From: a virus
Virus record (IMG/VR): IMGVR_UViG_3300037470_000304
Coordinates: 1 to 58,664 of that record
Reading direction: 5' to 3' (one strand)
Length of the DNA stretch: 58,664 bases
Below the pieces are notes generated by a model that was not told the DNA's origin, searched no databases, and saw only the letters and a list, made by a program, of their open reading frames with translations. The position numbers and the translations under genes were made by a program. This document shows, in pieces, positions 3,074 through 51,924 of this stretch; the first letter of the stretch is position 1; each line of letters opens with the position of its first letter.

Positions 3074-3292
3074 CTACAGGAACAGGCTGAGGCGGGACAA
3101 ATCGCCACTGAGCCGCTTGATCATGAAATGCAGCGAGTTGACCGCCTCGCTTTCGACGGTGGTCGCGCCGACCTTGCGGGTGCGCAGCAGTTCGACCTGC
3201 TCGCGCATCTCATTGACCGTGCCCTTGATATGGGCAAGACGGTCGCGGGGATTGTTGGCGAGCACGGGAAGCATTAATGATGGCGTAGCCAT
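3074..3292 (-). CDS. Hypothetical protein
   Basis: 72-aa ORF on the late strand. Confidence 0.5.
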   Translation of the reverse strand: MATPSLMLPVLANNPRDRLAHIKGTVNEMREQVELLRTRKVGATTVESEAVNSLHFMIKRLSGDLSRLSLFL

Positions 3293-3387
3293 TGTGACCT
3301 GTCCTGTAGGTTGCTGTGGTTAGGCTTGGCGGGGAGTTCGCACCTCCCTGTCAGGCCGGTATATGCACCATAGCAATGATATATCGC

Positions 3388-3430
3388 ATGTCAACGGCTA
3401 TCTTGACATTTTCGGTATGCCGCGTATCGT
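3388..3430 (+). promoter_or_regulatory. Sigma70-like promoter with palindromic operator
   Basis: TTGACA (3403-3408), 16 nt, TATCGT (3425-3430). The inverted repeat ATGTCAA-N8-TTGACAT (3388-3409) overlaps the -35. Confidence 0.45.
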
Positions 3431-3437
3431 CCGCCTC

Positions 3438-3650
3438 ATGGCTATCAAACCGAAACGAATTCTGATCGAACTTCCGCCCGAGCTTTTTCGCGCGATTGAG
3501 GACTATCGCTATAGCCAGCGTGTCCCAACGCGCGTCGAAGCCATCCGCCAACTCATCGAACGGGGATTGCACACCACAATCGATGATGACACGCCCGGCG
3601 AGAACTACGATCCAGGCCCTGCCCCCAAGGCGAAGGAGAAAACCACGTGA
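3438..3650 (+). CDS. Ribbon-helix-helix (CopG/Arc-like) DNA-binding protein
   Basis: MAIKPKRILIELPPELFRAIEDYRYSQRVPTRVEAIRQLIERGL has a beta-alpha-alpha pattern. The ATG lies 8 nt after the -10. The track ORF begins at 3363. Confidence 0.6.
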   Translation: MAIKPKRILIELPPELFRAIEDYRYSQRVPTRVEAIRQLIERGLHTTIDDDTPGENYDPGPAPKAKEKTT

Positions 3651-13630: not shown

Positions 13631-14059
13631 TTATTCCCCTATCCAACGGCATTCGCGCCGTAACATGCCAAGCAAAAGCGCATCCTTGCCCGTGCCGAAG
13701 CCGTCACGAACGCATCCCTCGATTTGAAATCCCAGACGCCGGCTGGCATCCAATGCACGCTTGTTGCCTCGCGACGTCAGCGCGGTGATGCGGACACAGC
13801 CCAATTGCTGAAACGGATAGCCGAACAGCACGCGCAGCGTCTTCCGGGTCATCCAGCCCGGTTCGCCCGCCCAATGGGTGCGTATGTCGGCTTGGTCCGG
13901 CTCCATTTTGCGATATTCGGCATAGATCACCCCGCCGATGATCCGGCCGCCTCGGGTCACGCCTATGGCCTCGTAATCCGCTCGCGGCGGCTCTCGCATA
14001 TCGCGGATGCGGGAGGCAACCCAGGCGGCGACAAACTCGCGCTGACCGGCGAGGATCAT
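13631..14059 (-). CDS. GNAT-family N-acetyltransferase
   Basis: 142 aa. ...ITALTSRGNKRALDASRRLGFQIEG... resembles the acetyl-CoA-binding motif A region of RimJ/RimL-like GNATs. Confidence 0.65.
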   Translation of the reverse strand: MILAGQREFVAAWVASRIRDMREPPRADYEAIGVTRGGRIIGGVIYAEYRKMEPDQADIRTHWAGEPGWMTRKTLRVLFGYPFQQLGCVRITALTSRGNKRALDASRRLGFQIEGCVRDGFGTGKDALLLGMLRRECRWIGE

Positions 14060-14175
14060 CGATTTAGCGCGTTTTCAGCGCTTCTCGGAGTATCCGAGCG
14101 TTCGCTAATACGGCATCGGGGGCTTTAGGCGCTTTGCTCAACCGACATACCTCGAAGGATAGGTATTTGCACTGT

Positions 14176-14212
14176 TTGACATGGCCGCCAACTGTCACTA
14201 TCTTGGTGACAT
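14176..14212 (+). promoter_or_regulatory. Near-consensus sigma70 promoter with palindrome around the -10
   Basis: TTGACA (14176-14181), 17 nt, TATCTT (14199-14204). TGTCAC (14193-14198) and GTGACA (14207-14212) bracket the -10. Confidence 0.5.
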
Positions 14213-14235
14213 AGAGGCGGCAACGGGCCGCTCAA

Positions 14236-14523
14236 TTGATGGAGATGACCACGATGCACGACAATTTCGAAGTAATCGAATGCATCAATGTCGGTACTAA
14301 GCACTTCGTGCTGGAGCATACGAAATGCGGTGACTTCTCAGCACACTGCCAGGATAAACACACGCTCGAACTCACGGTTCTGACGCAACCGATGTCCACG
14401 CTGAGCGTCGCGAGGGCCGCTTACCGAAACGCGGTGGAGGATGCTGAACGTGATGTGGCACGCACTGAGGCCGGGGAGCGTGCAATCGAGCGCGCGCATG
14501 TTCAGAAACAGCTCCTCAAATGA
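14236..14523 (+). CDS. Hypothetical 95-aa protein (moron gene 1)
   Basis: Opposite strand to the late operon. Clearly AT-richer. The exact start among several Met codons is uncertain. Confidence 0.5.
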   Translation: MMEMTTMHDNFEVIECINVGTKHFVLEHTKCGDFSAHCQDKHTLELTVLTQPMSTLSVARAAYRNAVEDAERDVARTEAGERAIERAHVQKQLLK

Positions 14524-14750
14524 CCAATACCGAGAAGCTCCGCATTCTCGGCGAGGCACTCCACGGGCCTCGCTGGATGAGAGCGGCGGCCCGCGATCTC
14601 GGCGTTAATTATCGCACTATGCTTCGGTGGCATGCGGGCCAGTCGCCCATAAATGACAAAATCGTGGTCGAATTGCTCGCCATTAGCAGAACCAGAGCGG
14701 CCACGATCAACGCCGCAATGGAGCAATGCAGAGGCCACACTCAGAACTGA
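14520..14750 (+). CDS. Small HTH DNA-binding protein (moron gene 2)
   Basis: ATGA overlap with the upstream ORF. AAARDLGVNYRTMLRWHAGQSP is helix-turn-helix-like. Confidence 0.55.
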   Translation: MTNTEKLRILGEALHGPRWMRAAARDLGVNYRTMLRWHAGQSPINDKIVVELLAISRTRAATINAAMEQCRGHTQN

Positions 14751-15472
14751 ACCTTAGTGTTCTGTGAGGTGTCTCGTAGAATTTCGGCTATGTCACCAGC
14801 GGTTAAACCGTCTTCGTGCAGATAATCTGTCAATGGGTTGCGTCCCCAGTCAAAGTCGTGTGGGTTAATGCGGTCTCCACGCTGATGGATGGTCAACTCT
14901 GGAAGTAACCCCAACTCCTTTGCCGCCATCAAGCGGTGGCTTCCTTCCAGTGCCATGTAATGGTCCCCCATATCCACAACGCTGATTTGCGGAGGACCAT
15001 GGTGCTGCATCGCCTCCTTAACCTCGTACAATTTTGAAGGATGGGTGTCATTGATCATGTAGATGGGCCTGTCTATCTTTGCGACTGAACCCGCCCCGCT
15101 GAACACCGTTCGCCCCGCGTCCTTGGCCACCGCGCCCGCCATCCGCGACGTTGGCAAGCCCGTGACGGCTCCGAACCCCGACAGCCCCGCCAGCGCGGAT
15201 GCGAGCGCTCCACGCCGCCAGTCGCCTGCGCCGAAGGCCTGCACGGCGTCCTTGCCGCTATCCCAGGCATCCTTCGCCGAGATCGCGTTCGCCGGACCCG
15301 GAATGACCGACAGCGCCTCCCAGCCGGTCTGCTTCAGGTTCTTCGCGCGCTGCTCCGGCGTCACAGTCTGACGTGCAGCCAGCTCCTGCCGCAGCTTGAA
15401 CGCATCAACAGGCGACATGCCCGCGAACGGGTCGTCACCAGGCTGCAGCGCATCAGAAAGATAACCCGGCAT
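14741..15472 (-). CDS. Tail-module protein with C-terminal ParB/Srx-like domain
   Basis: Start trimmed to MPGYLSDA (ATGA overlap with 15472..16986). C-terminal ISVVDMGDHYMALEGSHRLMAAKELGL resembles the ParB N-terminal domain. The 3' third is AT-richer. Confidence 0.55.
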   Translation of the reverse strand: MPGYLSDALQPGDDPFAGMSPVDAFKLRQELAARQTVTPEQRAKNLKQTGWEALSVIPGPANAISAKDAWDSGKDAVQAFGAGDWRRGALASALAGLSGFGAVTGLPTSRMAGAVAKDAGRTVFSGAGSVAKIDRPIYMINDTHPSKLYEVKEAMQHHGPPQISVVDMGDHYMALEGSHRLMAAKELGLLPELTIHQRGDRINPHDFDWGRNPLTDYLHEDGLTAGDIAEILRDTSQNTKVQF

Positions 15473-16986
15473 CACCCCGCCCCCAAAGGCCCGCCCGGCG
15501 TCGCGATAAGCTGGCTGGCAAACCATGATACGGAATCCGCCGTGCTCAGCGTGCGCACCACCGGCGCGACAGCCCGGCCGAAGCCGCGCGAGGATCGCCA
15601 GCGCCGCTTTGCGGAAGCGGGCGCGCCCCAATCCGTGCCCCAGGGATCGCCCCATTGCGCGCCCGTGCCGGCGGTGGACAGATCGTAAACCGTGGCGCCC
15701 AGCGCGGAATCGCGGAAATCGATGTCCAGCGCGAATTGCAGTTGCGCCGGCCCGGTGGCGTCGATCAGCGGCATATAGGCATTGTACAGCGCGGCATTGC
15801 CCGGCCCCATCGGATAGGAGGCGCCCTGCCTGGCCAGCGTGACGATCTGGGCGCCGGCGTCGGCCCCGGTCGCATGCCGGTAGACCAGCCCCGTGGAATA
15901 GGAGCCGAAATACAGCGCCCCGTTCAGATCGGCGAATTGCGCGGCCGGCAGCTTGGTGTACAGCGTCCAGGCCGAGACCCGGGTGTTGAGTACATATTGC
16001 TTGGTTTGCGCCAGGCCGGTGGCGATGTTGAAATACACCAGACCGTCGAAGAAATGCGCATTCCACCCGGCATTGGCGCCGTAGCGGGCAAAATCGGCTT
16101 TCCAGCTCGGCGCGATCTTGCCATAGAGCGCCAGCGCATCGAAGGAAAACGCATTGCCGGCGATCACGGCGGACACCGGGATCGGCCCGGACACGGTCAT
16201 GATGACCAGCTCGCCGCCCACCTTGACCACCGCGTCGACCGCGACTGGCGCTGGCGCCATGTATTTGCCCACCAGCGCGAAATTGGTCGCCGGATCGCCC
16301 TGATAGACGATGATCTCGCCGGTGTTCATGATGAACACGGTGAAATCGTCGCTGCCATCGCCGGCATCGCGCGACCATGAGCCGATGGCGACGCATTTGC
16401 CGCCCGCCGCGATCTGCGAAAGCTGAAACGTGGTCAGCGCCCCGGTCACCGACCCGATGCCGCCATAGCGGACATCGGCGGAGTTGGTCTGCGTCACCCA
16501 CAGCCGGTTGCGCACCTGGCTGATGGTTTGCAGCGTGGTCAGCGTCGGCCCGGTAAAGCCGGTTGCGCCAAATGTCGTGCCGTCATAGCGCCAGGGCGTG
16601 TCGGTGGCGTTGACGCCAAAAATGTAGCCGTTGAAATTGGCGTGCCGCCAGCGGTTGACGGTGTAGCCCGCGCCGAGTTCGGTTGGCGATCCCGAGACAT
16701 CGTAGACCTTGCCGTCCGAGGCCCCGGCGATCAACTTCTGGCTGGATGCGCCCTTGAACAGCATCAGGCTGAGCACGGTGGTGGCGCCCGTTATCGTCTG
16801 ATGCAAGGTATGACCTGGGCGCACCTTCACCGCGCCCTCGTCGGGCAACCAGTTCTCCAGCACCCGCGCCTCGGTCGGCTGCAAGGCGGTGTAGGCCTCG
16901 CGGGTATTGAGCCCTTGGAACGGCGCCGGGATTGGAAATGAGCCGCCAGCGCCTTTCATTTCGGGGGTTGGAAGACGGTTGGCCAT
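15472..16986 (-). CDS. Tail structural protein (nozzle/tubular-B-like position)
   Basis: 504-aa beta-rich ORF following the adaptor-like gene. Assignment is by position only. Confidence 0.45.
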   Translation of the reverse strand: MANRLPTPEMKGAGGSFPIPAPFQGLNTREAYTALQPTEARVLENWLPDEGAVKVRPGHTLHQTITGATTVLSLMLFKGASSQKLIAGASDGKVYDVSGSPTELGAGYTVNRWRHANFNGYIFGVNATDTPWRYDGTTFGATGFTGPTLTTLQTISQVRNRLWVTQTNSADVRYGGIGSVTGALTTFQLSQIAAGGKCVAIGSWSRDAGDGSDDFTVFIMNTGEIIVYQGDPATNFALVGKYMAPAPVAVDAVVKVGGELVIMTVSGPIPVSAVIAGNAFSFDALALYGKIAPSWKADFARYGANAGWNAHFFDGLVYFNIATGLAQTKQYVLNTRVSAWTLYTKLPAAQFADLNGALYFGSYSTGLVYRHATGADAGAQIVTLARQGASYPMGPGNAALYNAYMPLIDATGPAQLQFALDIDFRDSALGATVYDLSTAGTGAQWGDPWGTDWGAPASAKRRWRSSRGFGRAVAPVVRTLSTADSVSWFASQLIATPGGPLGAG

Positions 16987-18631: not shown

Positions 18632-18934
18632 CTAAAAAGTGGCGTTGATCTGCGTTGGGGTGATGAAGACGAAGAACGCCGCGCGCCCGGCGGGCAGCGT
18701 CAGCGCCGTGTTGGCCGTCGTGCCGTTGAAGCTGGAGCCGACCGGGGGATAGACGAGCAGCGAGTCCGTCGTGTCGCCATTGGCGATGGTGCGTATCTCA
18801 GCGCCATTGCCTGGGCTGAGAATGACGCCCTCGCCCGCCACGACGCTGGGGACGAGGACATGATCGGCGACACACACCGATGCAGTCGCCTGGGTCGTGC
18901 CGGCGGATGGCTGGGCTACATTGCTGGTCATCAA
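18632..18934 (-). CDS. Small beta-rich protein with Ser/Thr-rich N-terminus
   Basis: MMTSNVAQPSAGTTQATASV... 4-nt overlap with the Maf-like/MTase gene. Confidence 0.5.
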   Translation of the reverse strand: MMTSNVAQPSAGTTQATASVCVADHVLVPSVVAGEGVILSPGNGAEIRTIANGDTTDSLLVYPPVGSSFNGTTANTALTLPAGRAAFFVFITPTQINATF

Positions 18935-20313
18935 TGATCCTTCCGGGAGACCACGAATTGGGAATTGTCACCGCGATCGACAGAGAACGAGACGGCATAG
19001 CCTTTGTGCTCGAACAGCATTCGCCAGCCTTCATGATCCAGCACGCTGAGATGCAGGATCTGGCCGATATGAACGCCCATCGCATCGGGAACGGTCGAAA
19101 TCTGGAAAAACACCGTCTTGGCGGACGCCATGATGTTGTCGATGACGGCCTCCACCTGATCAGGAGGCACATGCTCCATCACGTCGGCGCACAAGCCGTA
19201 AGACGCGCGGAACGGCATGGGCTTGGACATATCCAGCGTGTAAAATCGCAAGCCGCGCGCCGGATGGTCGAGACAGTTCGACGCGAAATCGATGGCAATG
19301 ACGTCGCAACCGCGCCCCTCGATTTTCATCGCCGCGCGTCCGGTGCCGCAGCCGAAATCGATTACCAGGCCTTCCGGCTTGACGCGATCGAAGAAGGCGT
19401 CAACCGCATCCTCGCCCGGCGACCATCGTCGGTATTCCGGCAGCGACCACATCGCCTCGTATTTCTGCTGTTCTTCCATGCCCTCAAAGCCGGCGCGCCA
19501 CATGGCCGGCAGGATGCCGTCGCCATGCACTTCGATGGTGCAGCCTTGGCTTTGCAGATGGCGGGCAGCACCGAAGAAAGTCTTGCACTGGCCGCGCATG
19601 GTCAGGGAAATCTGATACGCCACGCCCTTGAAGGACATGTCGATTACGGCTTCCTCGTCATTGAGCGCTTGCGGCATGGCGTGGTGCTTGTCGCCGCGAT
19701 AGCTGCTGTCATAGCCGTAAGCCGCGAATTTGCGGTAGCCCATGGCGAAAGCGAGATACAGCGCCGTACAGCCGATCGATGAACCGCCGCCGATCAGGCA
19801 ATAATCGTCGTCATAGTCCGGCAGCACGTCGTCGATGCCGTCGATGATCATGTGCCAGAGGGTGGCGCGCGTTTTTCGGCCAAAGCAAAGCGGGCTGACC
19901 TGGCTGGCGAACAGATGGTGGTCAGCCGGCCCGATCAGATCGGCCGTCGCGTCGCGGGCGTCGGCGATGACCTGATAAGCAGGGCGAATGCCGTTCTCCG
20001 CCAGAAACCCGGCCGCTGCATTGAGCCCGAACACCGTCTCGCCGCGCGCCGCTCTCTCGCGAATCTCATCGAGTGTATCGGCTAGGCTTGGGCCCGATCC
20101 GCATAGCACGGCGACGCGATCATGTGGCTCGGCCAGCTTCAGCCATCCCTTGTGGGCCAGCGAATTGACGCGAATGTTCTCCAGCAATTGCTCATCGGTG
20201 GTGTTGCAGATCACGGCCAAAGGCAGTAGCAACGGCCACTCGGCGCCATCGTTACGATGTTCGATGGTAAGACGGGTGATAGGCGAAGGGGCGATTTTCA
20301 AATCGAACTCCAA
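18931..20313 (-). CDS. Fusion protein: DUF115/MptE-like (Maf-type glycosyltransferase-like) N-domain plus class I SAM methyltransferase C-domain
   Basis: VLCGSGPSL...GLNAAAGFLAENGIRPAYQVIADA and CLIGGGSSIGCTALYLAFAMGYRKFAAYGYD (DUF115-like). VIDFGCGTGRAAMKIEGRGCDVIAIDF (SAM motif I). Confidence 0.6.
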   Translation of the reverse strand: MEFDLKIAPSPITRLTIEHRNDGAEWPLLLPLAVICNTTDEQLLENIRVNSLAHKGWLKLAEPHDRVAVLCGSGPSLADTLDEIRERAARGETVFGLNAAAGFLAENGIRPAYQVIADARDATADLIGPADHHLFASQVSPLCFGRKTRATLWHMIIDGIDDVLPDYDDDYCLIGGGSSIGCTALYLAFAMGYRKFAAYGYDSSYRGDKHHAMPQALNDEEAVIDMSFKGVAYQISLTMRGQCKTFFGAARHLQSQGCTIEVHGDGILPAMWRAGFEGMEEQQKYEAMWSLPEYRRWSPGEDAVDAFFDRVKPEGLVIDFGCGTGRAAMKIEGRGCDVIAIDFASNCLDHPARGLRFYTLDMSKPMPFRASYGLCADVMEHVPPDQVEAVIDNIMASAKTVFFQISTVPDAMGVHIGQILHLSVLDHEGWRMLFEHKGYAVSFSVDRGDNSQFVVSRKDH

Positions 20314-20324
20314 AAGGAGGGCAA

Positions 20325-20732
20325 GTGGCTAGAATCTACATTCCCACGCCAGAGCAAGAAGCAGGCTGGGCTGCTTGGGTCGCTGACAGGCCGCCAGCCG
20401 TGCGCGCAGTCGCAGAACGTTTCGATCTGTGGTCGCTGTATCGGCTAAAGAGCAGCGGCCACCGTGTGACAATCTACAGTTTTCGCGAAAGTGATCCGGT
20501 CACAGTGACCGTGAACGTTCTCGGCGATTTCAATGCGTTAATTTTTGAGCGCCAAGTGTTTGGCGTCGCCCCTGACGATCTGGAGCCATGTGACCTGCCG
20601 TCAGCAGATGAGTTGGTCGGCTCCGTGATCCCAGCCGGGGAAGTTGAAGAAAACATTGACGCGCTTCGCGTCATCGTGCGTCCCGACCTATGGAACATGG
20701 GCGAAGACGGCAAAGCGCATCGCAAGCACTAA
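20325..20732 (+). CDS. Hypothetical 135-aa protein (opposite-strand moron)
   Basis: AGGAGG RBS upstream of a GTG start. Convergent with the decoration gene. Confidence 0.55.
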   Translation: MARIYIPTPEQEAGWAAWVADRPPAVRAVAERFDLWSLYRLKSSGHRVTIYSFRESDPVTVTVNVLGDFNALIFERQVFGVAPDDLEPCDLPSADELVGSVIPAGEVEENIDALRVIVRPDLWNMGEDGKAHRKH

Positions 20733-27495: not shown

Positions 27496-28725
27496 TCAGG
27501 CCATCCCCTCGACGCGGCCATCAGCCCCGCGCGCGATACCGCGCTTGCCCGATTTCAGCCGCGCCAGCATCGTCGGCAGATCGCCGTCGCTCTGCCCAAT
27601 CTCCACACCCATCGCGCGCCCGGTCTTGGGATCGCGGCTCACCTTGCGCGGCGCAGTCATATGGCCGACCACGGCGGTGACCGCATCCGTCATCTCATCC
27701 TGATTGCCGCGTATCTCCTGCAGCACGGAGACGATCTGCACTTGATTGGCTGACAGCTCCCGCATGGAGGCGGCGAACTGCGAGGCCAGTTCCGTGATCT
27801 GCTGGGCAACGCTGTCCTCGATCTCGGCCTTGGCGGTCTTGCCGCCTTCGCCCTTCATCTGTTCGCCTTCCAGGCTGCGGCGCGCCTGCTGCTCGTCCCG
27901 ATCCATGGCAAGACGCGATTGTGTTTCATGCGTCTTCAGCTCGCGGTCCTGGCGCTTGCCCTGGATGTCCTCAAGCGCGACCTGGCGCTGGAATTGGCGA
28001 TCGTCGTCCTGGCTAGCCCGGTTGGCCTGCGCTTCGTCGATGCGCATCGCCACATCCTGCTGCTTGACCCCCATGTCGAAGGCGGCGCTTTCCTTCTTGA
28101 ACGACAGCTCCTGCATCTTGATGCCCAGCTCGGCTCGTTTGAATTCAAGCTCGGCGGCAAGCTGCTGCTGCTTCATCGCGAACTCGCTCTCGGCCTGCTT
28201 GACCTTGAGCTGCGCGTCCTGCTGTTTGAACGCCATGTCGGCTTGCTGGGCCTGCGCGCTCGCCTGGGCTTCCTGCTGCTTCATGGCCATCTCAGCCTTG
28301 GCGGCCTCGGCTTCCGGATTGGGCTGCGGCGGGGTGTTCTGGATCTGGTCGAAGGCGTCGCCGAGCTGCTCCTCGAACTGCCGGCCCGGCTTGAACCTGC
28401 TCGACACGAATACCGCTAGTTCCTTGGCGAATGGGGCGAGCGTCGGGTTGCCCTGGATCGCAGGTATCCAGAGCTGCATCATCTCGGTCATCGCCTTGAC
28501 GTATTCGATGCTTTGCGCCTTCTCGGCCTCTTCATCCTCGAAGGCGGTGGCGTCGGTCTCAATGTCGATGCTGTAATTGCGCCGGTCGTCCGAGCGCAGG
28601 ATGCCGGAGACCTCCTCCCAGGAACAGGCCTCGGCGATCAGCTTGTCTTGTTCGAGCTGTTCGGGTGTGGGCATCGGCGGCATGGCTGGCGGTGCGGCGC
28701 CGTTCATCGGCATGGGAGGCATCAC
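27496..28725 (-). CDS. Pro/Met-rich N-terminus, globular segment and long Gln/Ala/Glu coiled coil (scaffold-like or portal-extension-like)
   Basis: 409 aa. MMPPMPMNGAAPPAMPPMP... then ...YSIDIETDATAF..., then a long coiled coil. Confidence 0.5.
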   Translation of the reverse strand: MMPPMPMNGAAPPAMPPMPTPEQLEQDKLIAEACSWEEVSGILRSDDRRNYSIDIETDATAFEDEEAEKAQSIEYVKAMTEMMQLWIPAIQGNPTLAPFAKELAVFVSSRFKPGRQFEEQLGDAFDQIQNTPPQPNPEAEAAKAEMAMKQQEAQASAQAQQADMAFKQQDAQLKVKQAESEFAMKQQQLAAELEFKRAELGIKMQELSFKKESAAFDMGVKQQDVAMRIDEAQANRASQDDDRQFQRQVALEDIQGKRQDRELKTHETQSRLAMDRDEQQARRSLEGEQMKGEGGKTAKAEIEDSVAQQITELASQFAASMRELSANQVQIVSVLQEIRGNQDEMTDAVTAVVGHMTAPRKVSRDPKTGRAMGVEIGQSDGDLPTMLARLKSGKRGIARGADGRVEGMA

Positions 28726-28982
28726 CGCGCGCTCACCCGGATGCAGGCGCCAACATGGTGCAAGCTCTCGACGGGGAACAGATGCGTGATCGTGCTTCCA
28801 TCCGCCTCCGTGATCTCACAAAGCCTATCATCGCCGCTCACTTCAAGCACCGTCATGGGGTGACGTTCACCGCGATTGACAACGCGCGTTCCCATTGGGA
28901 GCACGGTATAGCCGTGGCACGGCTCGCCTGTCTCATCATGAAACCCGCGATGATAACGCGCGCGTTCACAGCATGAGGTCAC
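28722..28982 (-). CDS. Hypothetical 86-aa protein
   Basis: ATGA overlaps on both sides. Cys/His-rich N-terminus. Confidence 0.5.
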   Translation of the reverse strand: MTSCCERARYHRGFHDETGEPCHGYTVLPMGTRVVNRGERHPMTVLEVSGDDRLCEITEADGSTITHLFPVESLHHVGACIRVSAR

Positions 28983-29281
28983 GCGGCTACCGCCTTAACA
29001 TCGTCCGCCCCATCTTCGCGCACGAAGCACTCATCCGCGATGACGATGTTGACGAACCCGCCGGCGCCAGGAGATTGCGAGCGCAACTTGCCAAGCGCGA
29101 ATTCAGCGAACGCAGGGTCTAAAGCGATGACGCGCAGGTAGTTGCATGCAGCCTGATCCGGAGGTTTGCGGCCCTGCTCCCAATCGCGCAGCGTTCCCAA
29201 AGGAAGATTGAAACGCTCGGCGAACGCGGCTTGCGTAAGCCGCATGCCCGCGCGAAGCGCCTTGATAGCTTCTGGCGTCAC
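28979..29281 (-). CDS. XRE/YiaG-type HTH protein (antitoxin-like)
   Basis: IKALRAGMRLTQAAFAERFNLPLGTLRDWEQGRKPPDQAACNYLRVIALDP matches the MqsA/YiaG-style HTH pattern. Confidence 0.6.
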   Translation of the reverse strand: MTPEAIKALRAGMRLTQAAFAERFNLPLGTLRDWEQGRKPPDQAACNYLRVIALDPAFAEFALGKLRSQSPGAGGFVNIVIADECFVREDGADDVKAVAA

Positions 29282-29496
29282 GCGGCTCTATCCCGCAGCT
29301 TGATAACCACCTTTGCGGTGTCGCGATAGAAGTACCAGAGCGGCACAATGTAATGATCTTCTGGAAGGTAGCTGAATTGGCCAACTGGCGAGCAGCCTGT
29401 GGAGAGCACGTACCGGGTCACTTTCGCATCCGGATTGAGTGCGTGCCTCTCACAGAGTTCTCGGGCAACGGCTTCGATATCATCCTCGGCGCTCAT
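29278..29496 (-). CDS. Hypothetical 72-aa protein
   Basis: ATGA overlap with the portal stop and with the HTH gene. Confidence 0.5.
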   Translation of the reverse strand: MSAEDDIEAVARELCERHALNPDAKVTRYVLSTGCSPVGQFSYLPEDHYIVPLWYFYRDTAKVVIKLRDRAA

Positions 29497-31040
29497 GCGG
29501 CTATCCCATTCATCGGAGGTCCGCCATTGTGACCCATCGGCGCGGGCAGCGGCCCGCCCGGCGGCGGCCCCGGCCCCTGCTGCATCTGTTGCGCCTGCAT
29601 CTGTTTCATCTTCTCCGCCATGGCGAGCCGCTGCCTGGCCGCCGCGCGCTCGCTCTCGGGCGGCAACAGGATGCCGGTCATCTGGCTCAATTGCTGAGGC
29701 TCGAAATGCTCGGCGATGATCTCGGCCTTCATCCGGTAGAGGTTGCGCACGAAGGTCTGCACCTCCTTCTGCCGCTTCTGCATGCGCTGCGATCCGAACC
29801 GGGCCTTGAGCTTTTGCGCACCAAGCGTCTCATTGGGGTCGGTCGCGCCGCGAATGACGTCGGATATGCCCGTTACCTCATAGATTGACTGGATCAGGCT
29901 GACGGCGCGCTGGGCGAGCTGCTGAATGGCCATCGCGATCGGCTCAAGGTCGCGGACCTGAAACGCGGCCTTCAGCCCGCCGCCACTGGCCAGGGCGGCC
30001 ATGTTCTTGAACGGCACGAATTGGCTATCGCTCAAATTGCCCAGCGATGACAGTTCATCGTCGGCCGACCCGTCATAGATGCCGCAATATTTGAGCGCCT
30101 CGACAAGCACATAAATGCGCTGGTTGAGCCGGTCCAGCTCGGCGGCCTGATCCTGATACTGGCAATATTCGGGTTGCGGGATCAGCCGGTCCGGCGTCTT
30201 GACGCCATACAGCGGCTTTGGACAGGGGAAGAAGCCTTCCAGCCGATAGGGATCGTCGATGCGCTCGATCTCCCAGTCATAGCCTTCAGCGATGTAAATG
30301 CGGGTGCGCGAGATGCTGTCCCAAATCTCCCAGATTTTGGCCCGCTTGAAGTCGCCAGCGCCCTGGTCTTCGGAGCGTCCTTCACCCTCCTTCAGCGTGA
30401 AGTTGAACGGGACTTTCTGCTTATCGAGGTCGAGGTCCGGGAATTGCTGCTTGACGTCGTCCCTGGTGAACAGATGCTGGCGCGCCACCCAGGGCACCTG
30501 CCGCCATTTCTTGCCCGGCCCATGGGTCCATTCATCATAGGGCACGTGGCAGACCTTGACCTGCTGATAGCCGAGCGTCTCGGCGCCGCCTTCCTCCACG
30601 ATCTCGGCGTCATATTCGATCCAGCACTGGCCGCGCCCACCAAGCAGATAGTCGGTGACACCGTCCTCGATCTCGCCGGCCACATCATAGCGATTGGCGC
30701 AGGCGACCAGCGCGCGCTCCATCACCAGCGCGGCGACGCGCGCGATCTTGTTGGCCTTGCCGGGCTGGGGAAAGGTCCGGCGCACATCGGGGCTGCCAAG
30801 CTCGGCGAACAGCGTGGATTTGAGCACTTCGGTGTTCGACCACAGGATCGAGATGCGGCGGTCGACCTCGCCTTCGTCGCGGTCACGCTCATCCAGATAG
30901 CGGCAGACGACGCTTTCGGCGCGCTTGCGCCATTTGTCCTCACGCTTGAGACTGGCGTCGATCTGGTTGTGCCAATAGCGCGCCGATTTGGGGGGCTCGC
31001 CTTGTTCCCTGGCCTCGCTCTCGGTCAGTTCCTGGGTCAC
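29493..31040 (-). CDS. Portal protein
   Basis: 515 aa directly downstream of terL. ...GATDPNETLGAQKLK... region is typical of podoviral portals. Gln/Pro-rich tail. Confidence 0.75.
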   Translation of the reverse strand: MTQELTESEAREQGEPPKSARYWHNQIDASLKREDKWRKRAESVVCRYLDERDRDEGEVDRRISILWSNTEVLKSTLFAELGSPDVRRTFPQPGKANKIARVAALVMERALVACANRYDVAGEIEDGVTDYLLGGRGQCWIEYDAEIVEEGGAETLGYQQVKVCHVPYDEWTHGPGKKWRQVPWVARQHLFTRDDVKQQFPDLDLDKQKVPFNFTLKEGEGRSEDQGAGDFKRAKIWEIWDSISRTRIYIAEGYDWEIERIDDPYRLEGFFPCPKPLYGVKTPDRLIPQPEYCQYQDQAAELDRLNQRIYVLVEALKYCGIYDGSADDELSSLGNLSDSQFVPFKNMAALASGGGLKAAFQVRDLEPIAMAIQQLAQRAVSLIQSIYEVTGISDVIRGATDPNETLGAQKLKARFGSQRMQKRQKEVQTFVRNLYRMKAEIIAEHFEPQQLSQMTGILLPPESERAAARQRLAMAEKMKQMQAQQMQQGPGPPPGGPLPAPMGHNGGPPMNGIAA

Positions 31041-50569: not shown

Positions 50570-50836
50570 ATGTCCGCAGCCGCGCTGAAGCCCCGTGATG
50601 TCGTCCTGCCGCTGTTGTCGCTCGCGCCACGGGGCTTGCGCCGTGTCGAGGCGGCGGCCTATATCGGCGTCAGCCCGTCGTCGTTCGACGCGATGATCGC
50701 CGAAGGGGTGATGCCTAAGCCCAAACGCTGGGGGGGGCGGGTGATATGGGATCGACACATGCTCGATGAATTCTTCGCCGCCATGCCTTGTGATGACGAC
50801 AAACCGCGCCGCAGCCTTTGCGACGAAATCGCATGA
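50570..50836 (+). CDS. xis: Excisionase/AlpA-like HTH protein
   Basis: AAAYIGVSPSSFDAMIAEGVMPKP...WDRHMLDEFF, immediately upstream of int. Confidence 0.55.
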   Translation: MSAAALKPRDVVLPLLSLAPRGLRRVEAAAYIGVSPSSFDAMIAEGVMPKPKRWGGRVIWDRHMLDEFFAAMPCDDDKPRRSLCDEIA

Positions 50837-51924
50837 TGGCACGCGTTCGCCTGAAGCATGTGACTGCGGATCAGGACCGGCACGGCAACGTGCGATACTA
50901 TTTCCGCAAGCGCGGGCTCAAGGCGAAAACGCGACTGCCGGGGTTGCCAGGCGCCGAAGAATTTATGCGCGCCTATGAGGCGCTGCTAGCCGGCAACCCC
51001 TTGCCCGCGCCAAAGGGACAGAAGCCCCTTCTCGGCAAGGCCGACGCCACGTCATTGCGCTGGCTGTTCCAGCAGTATCTCGCCTGCCCCGAATTCAAAG
51101 TGCTGGACAAGAAAACCCGTTCCAGCCGAAACGGGGTTCTTCAAACGATCAGCCAATTGCCGATCTCCGAGGGACATTCAAGCAAGATCGGCGATGTCCC
51201 ATTTGCCGAACTGACCTCGAAAAATATCCGCCGCATTCGCGACCGCAAGGCTGAATTCCCCCAAGCCGCGAATAGCTGGCTGAAATCGCTGAAAGTGGTG
51301 TTCAAATGGGCCGTCGCGGCTGAGCATTGCGAGCACGATCCGGCGAAAGATGTGCCAAAGATCAAAAAGTTCAGCGTCGGACATCACGCTTGGTCGATGC
51401 AGGAAATCGCCCAATATGAGGCCGCGTATCCCATCGGCACGATGGAGCGTCTCGCCTTGGCGCTGCTGCTGTATACGGGACAACGCGTGTCCGACATTAT
51501 TTTATTTGGCCCGCAACATATCAGCAACGACGTCTTGCGGTTCACCCAAGTCAAAAACCGCAACCGCAAGCCGGTCACGCTGGCGCTTCCCGTGCTGCCG
51601 GCGCTGATGAAGATCATCGCGGCAACCCCGTCCGGGCATCTGACATTTGTCGTCACCACGCATGGCCAGCCATTCTCGGCAGAACAGTTCAGCAGACGTT
51701 TCAGCGCATGGTGTACCGCTGCCGGATTGTCCGAATGTACGGCTCACGGATTGCGCAAGGCGGGCGCGACATTCGCCGCCGAGAACGGCGCAACGGCCGC
51801 GCAATTAAAGGCAATCTTTGGCTGGGCACAACTTGCGCAGGCCGATGTTTATACTCGCAGCGTTGACCAGGAACGGCTGGCCGGGGATAGCATGCATCTC
51901 ATCCGCACGGCGGACAAATCCTGA
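50833..51924 (+). CDS. int: Tyrosine recombinase (phage integrase)
   Basis: TGQRVSD (Arg), HGLRKAG (H-x-x-R), ADVYT (Tyr). ATGA overlap with xis. Confidence 0.85.
   Translation: MMARVRLKHVTADQDRHGNVRYYFRKRGLKAKTRLPGLPGAEEFMRAYEALLAGNPLPAPKGQKPLLGKADATSLRWLFQQYLACPEFKVLDKKTRSSRNGVLQTISQLPISEGHSSKIGDVPFAELTSKNIRRIRDRKAEFPQAANSWLKSLKVVFKWAVAAEHCEHDPAKDVPKIKKFSVGHHAWSMQEIAQYEAAYPIGTMERLALALLLYTGQRVSDIILFGPQHISNDVLRFTQVKNRNRKPVTLALPVLPALMKIIAATPSGHLTFVVTTHGQPFSAEQFSRRFSAWCTAAGLSECTAHGLRKAGATFAAENGATAAQLKAIFGWAQLAQADVYTRSVDQERLAGDSMHLIRTADKS

Follow-up and report, generated by a model that had tools for sequence, protein, structure and literature searches.

In the temperate Pectobacterium phage ZF40, a small effector gene, acrIF8, and the downstream gene of a helix-turn-helix (HTH) autorepressor, aca2, form a single operon in which an inverted repeat lies over the promoter and a structured 5′ untranslated region separates the transcription start from the ribosome-binding site (PMC6765145, PMC13551039). 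Variable small anti-CRISPR (Acr) genes next to a conserved gene for a short HTH protein (~70-80 amino acids, aa) also occur among the structural genes of Mu-like Pseudomonas phages (JBD30 and its relatives) as acr-aca1 loci, and AcrIC5, an experimentally validated and broadly distributed type I-C inhibitor, was discovered beside aca1 (PMC7913775). In the aca1, aca2, aca10 and aca12 operons, the promoter is overlaid by a DNA motif, the transcription start is immediately followed by a hairpin motif, and the start codon keeps a conserved position (PMC13551039). Here we describe a cassette resembling these loci in the IMG/VR virus record IMGVR_UViG_3300037470_000304, analysed over its whole length of 58,664 nucleotides (nt), hereafter the window. 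Located on the plus strand between 14176 and 14750, the cassette comprises a promoter, a leader, an orphan open reading frame (ORF1) of 89 aa in the upstream position occupied by acrIF8 in ZF40, and a gene for a 76-aa HTH protein, and it is inserted in a minus-strand operon of virion and ejection genes. We read it as a counter-defence operon of the acr-aca type, placed in opposite orientation within the virion/ejection operon of a temperate phage, and give this reading a probability of roughly 60%. Systems of this kind are familiar; the novelty lies in the HTH family, in the signature formed by its operator and leader, and in the candidate effectors, an orphan among them.

An earlier note, made from the letters of this sequence without database searches, had proposed an acr-aca-like architecture, with ORF1 as no more than a candidate effector. 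That proposal is supported by the recurrence of the module with different cargo, by homologues of AcrIC5 in five loci and by top matches of the HTH protein to Aca2/YdiL. Three features of the class are found here: an inverted repeat overlapping the promoter, a conserved HTH protein accompanied by variable small genes, and an HTH family that occurs beside homologues of a validated Acr family.

Related loci and exchange of cargo

The HTH family is rare: in protein and DNA searches it turned up on nine distinct phage contigs but in no cellular genome, and a search of 185,579 representative genomes likewise returned no member. Eight of the nine contigs, including the window, contain the upstream region, the remaining one (L006) being a 1-kb fragment. 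Throughout these eight loci (the window, L001, L004, L007, L008, L012, L013 and L016), whose HTH proteins are 51-70% identical, a -35 element (TTGACA, ATGACA, TTGACG or TTGACT) stands 17 nt from a -10 element (TATATT, TATCTT, CATATT or CATTAT), a 21-bp palindrome is centred on the -10, and a conserved block ends in GATGG(N6-9)ACCACG-ATG. Past this start codon the sequences diverge wholly. The proteins encoded in the slot (70-126 aa) are mutually unrelated except for those of L001 and L008 (32% identity), which makes seven cargo families in eight loci; half of the eight are strongly acidic (isoelectric point, pI, 4.1-4.5), and most of their genes overlap the HTH gene as ATGA or GTGA. The flanks of L001 are orthologous to those of the window (a 504-aa protein is 80% identical and the GNAT-like protein 68%) and, despite this, its cargo is an unrelated protein of 110 aa. 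The earlier note had named conservation of the island in all relatives, with a known structural role, as a refutation of its proposal; this is not what is seen in L001. In L007, the cassette lies between terminase genes and is co-directional with them. The conserved leader and the conserved HTH gene bound a slot whose effector gene has been swapped between phages.

Searches with the leader as a DNA pattern added no locus among viral contigs, the stricter pattern returning nothing and the looser one only the contigs already found. Five matches were obtained in 596 Gb of genome contigs, a collection in which ~1-2 chance matches are expected for 21 specified bases; the one that was inspected (L020, from Pararhodobacter) falls within the coding region of a signal-peptidase-like protein and was rejected as a chance match. 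L001 also contains, at 3209-3589 on the plus strand of its minus-strand tail operon, an additional pair of small ORFs (69 and 56 aa) where none was called in the window.

Homologues of AcrIC5 beside the HTH family

In five distinct loci (L004, L008-10, L012, L013/14 and L016), a gene of 86-90 aa opens ~19 nt before the stop codon of the HTH gene. It belongs to a 14-member family, each member of which matches the Pfam family AcrIC5 (PF22147; best E 1.5e-9), the L004 copy scoring 26.5 bits against a cut-off of 27. When the family profile was compared with the Protein Data Bank (PDB), AcrIC5 (7yhr) was the sole significant match (E 3e-4), in two collinear stretches with an insertion of ~30 residues between them. 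AcrIC5 is acidic and is predicted to occlude the protospacer adjacent motif site of Cas8c (bioRxiv 10.1101/2025.06.06.658234).

The three further contexts of this family that were examined are different. In L015 (3239-3899) and L017 (2196-2895), the AcrIC5-like gene is preceded by that of a 163-185-aa protein with a zinc-ribbon-like N-terminal part and a weak C-terminal HTH, which may be a different type of regulator for the family; in L015 a YccJ-like protein of 72 aa (Pfam, 32 bits) is encoded ahead of it. In L011 (4860-5003), a lone AcrIC5-like gene has no adjacent HTH gene and is preceded by TTGTCA-17-TACACT, with a perfect palindrome, ATGTCCTA-CACT-TAGGACAT (also given as GAATGTCCTA-CACT-TAGGACATTC), centred on the -10. 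Its half-sites ATGTC/GACAT resemble those of the putative operator studied here, 1 bp closer together, and suggest regulation in trans by a related HTH protein encoded elsewhere.

A short HTH protein closest to Aca2/YdiL but outside Aca1-Aca10

The 76-aa HTH protein resembles the N-terminal part of Aca2/YdiL and continues into a long C-terminal helix. Among 24,736 Pfam models its top match was Aca2_YdiL (PF08965, DUF1870), at 20.3 bits against a cut-off of 23.8 and over residues 28-71 only, and a profile of five sequences of the family matched YdiL best in the PDB (1s4k, E 0.005), followed by three Aca2 entries. An AlphaFold2 (AF2) model built from three sequences, with a predicted local distance difference test (pLDDT) value of 92.9, found Aca2 again at the top of the Foldseek matches: 7b5j_A (template modelling score, TM, 0.71; root-mean-square deviation 2.4 over 70 columns) and 7vjq, which is Aca2 on DNA, with 7vjo, 7ezy, HigA2, YdiL 1s4k and Aca10 7xi5 among the further matches. 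The E-values are weak (0.05-0.16) because the HTH domain is short. In this model the protein shares with Aca2 an N-terminal HTH followed by a long helix, but no more than roughly half of each Aca2 chain is covered by the match (target-normalised TM 0.47-0.49): at 76 aa instead of ~115-125 aa, the protein is without the C-terminal dimerisation domain of Aca2, and the long helix 46-74 is its only candidate dimer interface in the model.

The earlier note had proposed that the protein be compared with the Aca families by hidden Markov models (HMMs). Against Aca1-Aca10 HMMs built from the member lists in supplement S1 of PMC9410906, it scored 20.4 bits for Aca2, 17.7 for Aca9, 12.4 for Aca6, 10.5 for Aca8, 10.3 for Aca5, 6.3 for Aca10 and 3.8 for Aca1, and it is therefore a member of none of the ten. 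Members score 123-173 bits on the HMM of their own family (173 for Aca2; 123-158 for Aca1 and Aca3-Aca10), whereas other Aca families reach 34.6 bits on the Aca2 HMM and the XRE-type Aca families up to 43 bits on one another, so that even the Aca2 score is within cross-family noise. The value for Aca1 indicates no relationship. Aca9 and Aca10 are similar in size to the protein and, like it, have a W-x-x-G motif after a recognition helix of the XRE type, and the alignment with Aca9 by hhalign reached a probability of 95.6%, but true members of these two families score 125-135 bits, so that the likeness does not amount to membership. To judge by these comparisons, the protein looks like the representative of a new Aca-like family, about as distant from Aca2 and Aca9 as these are from each other.

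Promoter, putative operator and conserved leader

The TTGACA and TATCTT elements that the earlier note had placed 17 nt apart at 14176-14204 are indeed there and agree with 10 of 12 consensus positions, the only match this good on either strand between 9000 and 21000. The TGTCAC (14193-14198) and GTGACA (14206-14211) half-sites do bracket the -10 as described, but with a spacer of 7 nt, not 8, and as part of a longer, 9-3-9 palindrome (Table 1). The pattern TGTCAC-N5..9-GTGACA occurs once in the window, against 0.01 occurrences expected from shuffles. The palindrome of L008 is perfect (ATGTCATCATTATGATGACAT, i.e. ATGTCATCA-TTA-TGATGACAT), with all 10 pairs symmetric; the corresponding figure is 8 in L001 and L004, 7 in the window, 6 in L007, L012 and L013, and 5 in L016. 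Moving the centre of the palindrome leaves far fewer pairs in the window, L001, L004, L007 and L008. A second copy of the operator, which would be a sign of co-regulated operons, was sought across the window and not found. The operators differ between loci with VNYRT(M/V)LRW and those with I(N/D)(P/S)RQVHRW as recognition helix, the independent loci being too few to call this co-variation.

The leader is 49 nt long in the window, and over the eight loci the ATG follows the -10 at a distance of 46-51 nt. RNAalifold predicts a first hairpin (14214-14233; GAG-G-CGGC paired with GCCG-CTC) directly after the inferred transcription start and a second one (14237-14253; TGATGG paired with CCACGA) that ends at the start codon and covers the GG, that is half, of the Shine-Dalgarno sequence GGAG (14241-14244). 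The latter pairing would explain the invariant ACCACG ahead of the start codon. Standard pairs account for 97.9% of the cells in the alignment, nearly all pairs being invariant, and the minimum free energy of the single sequence is -14.4 kcal/mol (z = -1.9). The layout of the cassette matches that of the published aca1, aca2, aca10 and aca12 operons. One difference from aca2 is that its second inverted repeat (IR2) resembles the operator half-sites, whereas the leader hairpins here do not; RNA binding by the HTH protein is for this reason put forward as a possibility only.

ORF1, an orphan in the putative effector position

The earlier note had given ORF1 a length of 95 aa and an ATGA overlap with the HTH gene. 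Both ORFs and the overlap are confirmed, but the start codon is most likely ATG 14254, which gives 89 aa, and not the TTG at 14236 that opens the longer ORF (14236-14523, plus strand). The upstream in-frame ATG/TTG falls inside the DNA block common to the eight loci, and the upstream ATG (in GATGG), in frame with the cargo gene in five of them, is out of frame in the other three (L008, L013 and L016), so that the block is conserved as nucleotides and not as codons. In addition, a gene call made independently on an identical contig also gave 89 aa, and GGAG lies 9 nt upstream of ATG 14254. The codon log-likelihood of ORF1 is +0.07 in the annotated frame, as opposed to -0.45 and -0.75 in the others, and its content of guanine plus cytosine (GC) by codon position is 0.64/0.37/0.63; its codon log-likelihood and codon adaptation are as weak as those of the HTH gene, and the former is well under that of the core virion genes.

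The claim that ORF1 belongs to no recognisable family was borne out. A word-indexed search of 5.8 billion clusters and an exhaustive HMMER search of 1.84 billion representatives recovered only ORF1 itself, tblastn against GenBank phages found nothing, and the sole other copy lies on contig L003, whose DNA shows 100% identity over 10.9 kb. No significant match was found in Pfam or PHROG (the weak hits, to Pro_CA with 18 bits and to phrog_26533 with E 0.06, fall far short of the thresholds and count as noise) and none in PADLOC; the best PDB sequences, flavivirus E proteins at E ~0.6, are also noise. Comparison with AcrIC5 (Pfam PF22147) and with the AcrIC5-like family (A4) showed no similarity. 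The single-sequence AF2 model, with three beta-strands followed by a helix at 47-87, is poor (pLDDT 59.8), and a fold search with it, which returned nothing under E = 1, was disregarded. The N-terminal half of ORF1, as read from the sequence, is rich in cysteine and histidine (C10, H17, H22, C25, H31, C32 and H36); that these residues might bind a metal is speculation.

Genomic setting of the cassette

The window corresponds to the complete genome, or a large part of the genome, of a temperate phage. TerL, portal and virion genes are on the minus strand, from ~0.5 to 32.4 kb, while the plus strand carries a RecT/Bet-like gene and an integrase gene (50818-51924). The portal protein shares only ~31% identity with its counterparts in phages of Bradyrhizobium, Rhizobium, Brucella, Ruegeria and Myxococcus (Mx8/Mx9), and a distant DNA search with 7 kb around the locus against GenBank phages found nothing. 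As the earlier note had stated, the cassette interrupts the minus-strand operon, between a GNAT-like gene and a gene for a 261-aa protein (Table 1).

Table 1. The cassette, its predicted signals and the two flanking genes (positions in the window)
Feature	Position	Strand	Description
GNAT-like gene	13631-14059	minus	phrog_4470, E 1e-33; one flank of the cassette
Sigma-70-type promoter	14176-14204	plus	-35 TTGACA (14176-14181), 17-nt spacer, -10 TATCTT (14199-14204)
Putative operator	14192-14212		21-bp 9-3-9 palindrome CTGTCACTA-TCT-TGGTGACAT, centred on the -10; core TGTC-N11-GACA
5′ leader	14213-14253	plus	conserved block; transcription start inferred near 14211-14213
ORF1	14254-14523	plus	89-aa orphan (pI 6.0) that follows the leader and precedes the HTH gene, the acr position; candidate anti-defence effector
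HTH gene	14520-14750	plus	76-aa protein; ATGA overlap with ORF1; putative Aca-like autorepressor
261-aa gene	14741-15526	minus	other flank of the cassette, convergent with the HTH gene

The description of the region as an AT-richer island holds in a modest sense: the GC content is 0.53-0.54 across 14000-14450 against 0.617 for the whole window, and the neighbouring minus-strand gene is just as GC-poor at its 3′ end (0.52). ORF1 and the HTH gene are below the core genes in both GC content and codon adaptation, an atypical composition that suggests mobile cargo.

Several neighbouring features deserve mention. The low-GC (0.52) segment 14741-15130 (minus strand) encodes the C-terminal ~129 aa of the 261-aa protein, a domain weakly similar to the ParB/sulfiredoxin type (E 0.06 with SbnI and 0.17 with sulfiredoxin) and carrying the motif DHYMALEGSHRLMAAKELG. 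This domain is missing from the L001 orthologue, in which only the N-terminal part aligns (36% identity), and it may be a variable effector domain carried by an ejected virion protein beside the anti-defence slot. Between the start codon of the GNAT gene and the cassette promoter, positions 14064-14108 contain nested inverted repeats (TTAGCG/CGCTAA, AGCGCT and CTCGGA-gta-TCCGAG) that could be part of the promoter region of this minus-strand gene; they are not kept in L001 or L004, whose spacer is much shorter.

Farther along the window, a second cassette of small ORFs and HTH (28722-29496, minus strand) lies between ORFs 27496-28725 and 29493-31040, with three genes whose products have 72, 100 and 86 aa; the 100-aa protein carries the motif LRDWEQGRKPP and matches Pfam HTH_3 at 24.5 bits. 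Its HTH protein reaches 26.1 bits on the Aca9 HMM, inside the cross-family noise. The two flanking ORFs correspond to different parts of a single portal profile, phrog_12082, one to its N-terminal (9-510) and the other to its C-terminal (505-709) part, so that this locus is either a split portal-associated gene or a moron inserted between two genes that other phages carry as a fusion. Also within the virion operon, an opposite-strand ORF of 135 aa (20325-20732, plus strand), with a GTG start after GGAGG, was gene-called as well on the identical contig L003; its GC content at third codon positions and its codon adaptation match the low values of the studied cassette, and it matched nothing in Pfam or PHROG. 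In the virion gene block, too, 18931-20313 (minus strand) encodes a 460-aa protein, unusual among structural genes, that matches a PHROG tRNA methyltransferase (E 5e-7) and, on the identical contig, Pfam MptE-like, and that may be a DNA- or RNA-modifying enzyme.

Alternative explanations

A number of observations weigh against a counter-defence operon of the acr-aca type. The HTH protein falls under every threshold for Aca1-Aca10, its best scores being within the cross-family range, and its structural matches also include generic XRE regulators and the antitoxin HigA2. The palindrome is imperfect, with 7 of 10 pairs in the window and 5-6 in four other loci, and in L012, L013 and L016 a centre moved by 1 nt scores equally well or better; moreover, the Aca2 operator is TTCG-N6-CGAA (IR1; PMC6765145; a spacing of N8 is also given), in contrast to the TGTC-N11-GACA found here on the -10. 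Covariation in the leader hairpins was tested and is not significant, and the leader matched no Rfam family; we consequently claim no functional RNA motif. An AcrIC5-like ORF was sought throughout the window and not found, and the AcrIC5 homologues of the other loci, related by homology only, are ~30 residues longer than AcrIC5 and encoded downstream of the HTH gene instead of upstream. ORF1 itself has no homologue, recognisable fold or likeness to known anti-defence proteins, at pI 6.0 it is not markedly acidic, and its role is deduced entirely from its position. Promoter activity, autorepression, dimerisation of the HTH protein and any anti-defence activity of ORF1, together with its target, are inferred.

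One alternative is that the cassette is a generic moron for lysogenic conversion, in which the HTH protein would control its own promoter and ORF1, expressed by the prophage, would benefit the lysogen, for instance through superinfection exclusion or immunity to other phages, and would not inhibit host defences. The phage is temperate, as shown by its integrase and RecT/Bet-like genes, an opposite-strand island of lower GC content with its own promoter in a late operon is the classic layout of a moron, the window contains at least two further islands of this type, and ORF1 is unlike any anti-defence protein. Aca-regulated genes may, besides, act on superinfecting phages as well as on the host (PMC13551039). 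We nevertheless consider this explanation unlikely: the cargo proteins and their neighbours match none of 5027 PADLOC defence models, among the families that accompany the cargo, the only one whose kinship can be recognised is related to an anti-CRISPR, four of the eight cargo proteins combine small size with strong acidity, as is typical of DNA-mimic inhibitors, and ORF1 has, as read from its sequence, no membrane segment, unlike many exclusion proteins. A more improbable explanation is that the HTH protein has its real function elsewhere, for example in the timing of late transcription through interference with the minus-strand operon, and that the variable ORFs, including ORF1, are neutral filler. 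It draws on the orphan status of ORF1, whose sole other copy is 100% identical in DNA so that purifying selection cannot be shown, on its weak codon adaptation, and on the convergence of the cassette with minus-strand genes that its promoter could modulate. However, the single operator-like site of the window is at the cassette's own promoter, the co-directional arrangement in L007 indicates that interference is not a general role, an intact ORF occupies the slot in all eight loci, with conserved Shine-Dalgarno and start positions and in most cases translational coupling to the HTH gene, and the coding signal of ORF1 is frame-specific.

The match to HigA2 prompted the idea of a type II toxin-antitoxin pair with the HigB-HigA layout, an upstream toxin and a downstream autorepressing HTH antitoxin, which we rejected on account of the diversity of the partner proteins and the acidity of many of them, and which we regard as very improbable. 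Gene order, overlap and promoter palindrome are those of HigBA-type modules, and HigA2, an HTH protein encoded downstream of its partner, is among the top fold matches (TM 0.58). Nonetheless, the upstream proteins are unrelated from one locus to another and match no toxin family in Pfam, PHROGs or PADLOC. RelE/HigB-type toxins are basic, whereas four of the upstream proteins are strongly acidic and ORF1 has a pI of 6.0. It is also implausible that one 76-aa HTH protein devoid of the extra neutralising domain of HigA2-type antitoxins would counteract seven unrelated toxins, and in five loci the HTH gene is followed by a homologue of an anti-CRISPR. Overall, we favour the interpretation of the cassette as a counter-defence operon.

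Proposed mechanism

If the cassette is such an operon, the host RNA polymerase would fire the near-consensus promoter upon phage entry and transcribe the structured leader together with ORF1 and the HTH gene, whose translation is coupled to that of ORF1, into one message. Early on, the ORF1 protein would inhibit a host immune system by binding. As the HTH protein accumulates, it would dimerise, probably via its long C-terminal helix, and bind the 21-bp palindrome on the -10. The promoter would then be shut, preventing both overproduction of the effector and head-on collision with late transcription of the minus strand; this second benefit of repression is suggested by the convergence of the cassette with the late genes.

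A broader version of this scenario, which we propose very tentatively and which is on balance doubtful as a whole, combines several elements: the HTH protein would found a minimal Aca family; repression at the palindrome would be supplemented by translational control through the hairpins, exerted by the HTH protein or by the leader alone; the leader and the start codon of the HTH gene would serve as recombination anchors; and each of the at least seven unrelated protein families of the slot, including ORF1, would be a new anti-CRISPR or anti-defence family, the phages being probably alphaproteobacterial.

Implications for phage counter-defence

All examples of this cassette come from uncultivated phages; the closest relatives in culture have Bradyrhizobium, Rhizobium, Brucella and Ruegeria as hosts, a group with few known anti-defence genes. 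If ORF1 turned out to be inactive, the locus would be an ordinary autoregulated moron. The short HTH protein with its structured leader offers a natural test of whether an HTH of the Aca2 type can repress without the Aca2 dimerisation domain and of whether such a leader adds a layer of control. New anti-CRISPR and other anti-defence proteins have mainly been discovered through their association with Aca regulators, so that a new Aca-like marker leads to fresh candidates, and this HTH family nominates seven unrelated small proteins, the orphan ORF1 among them.

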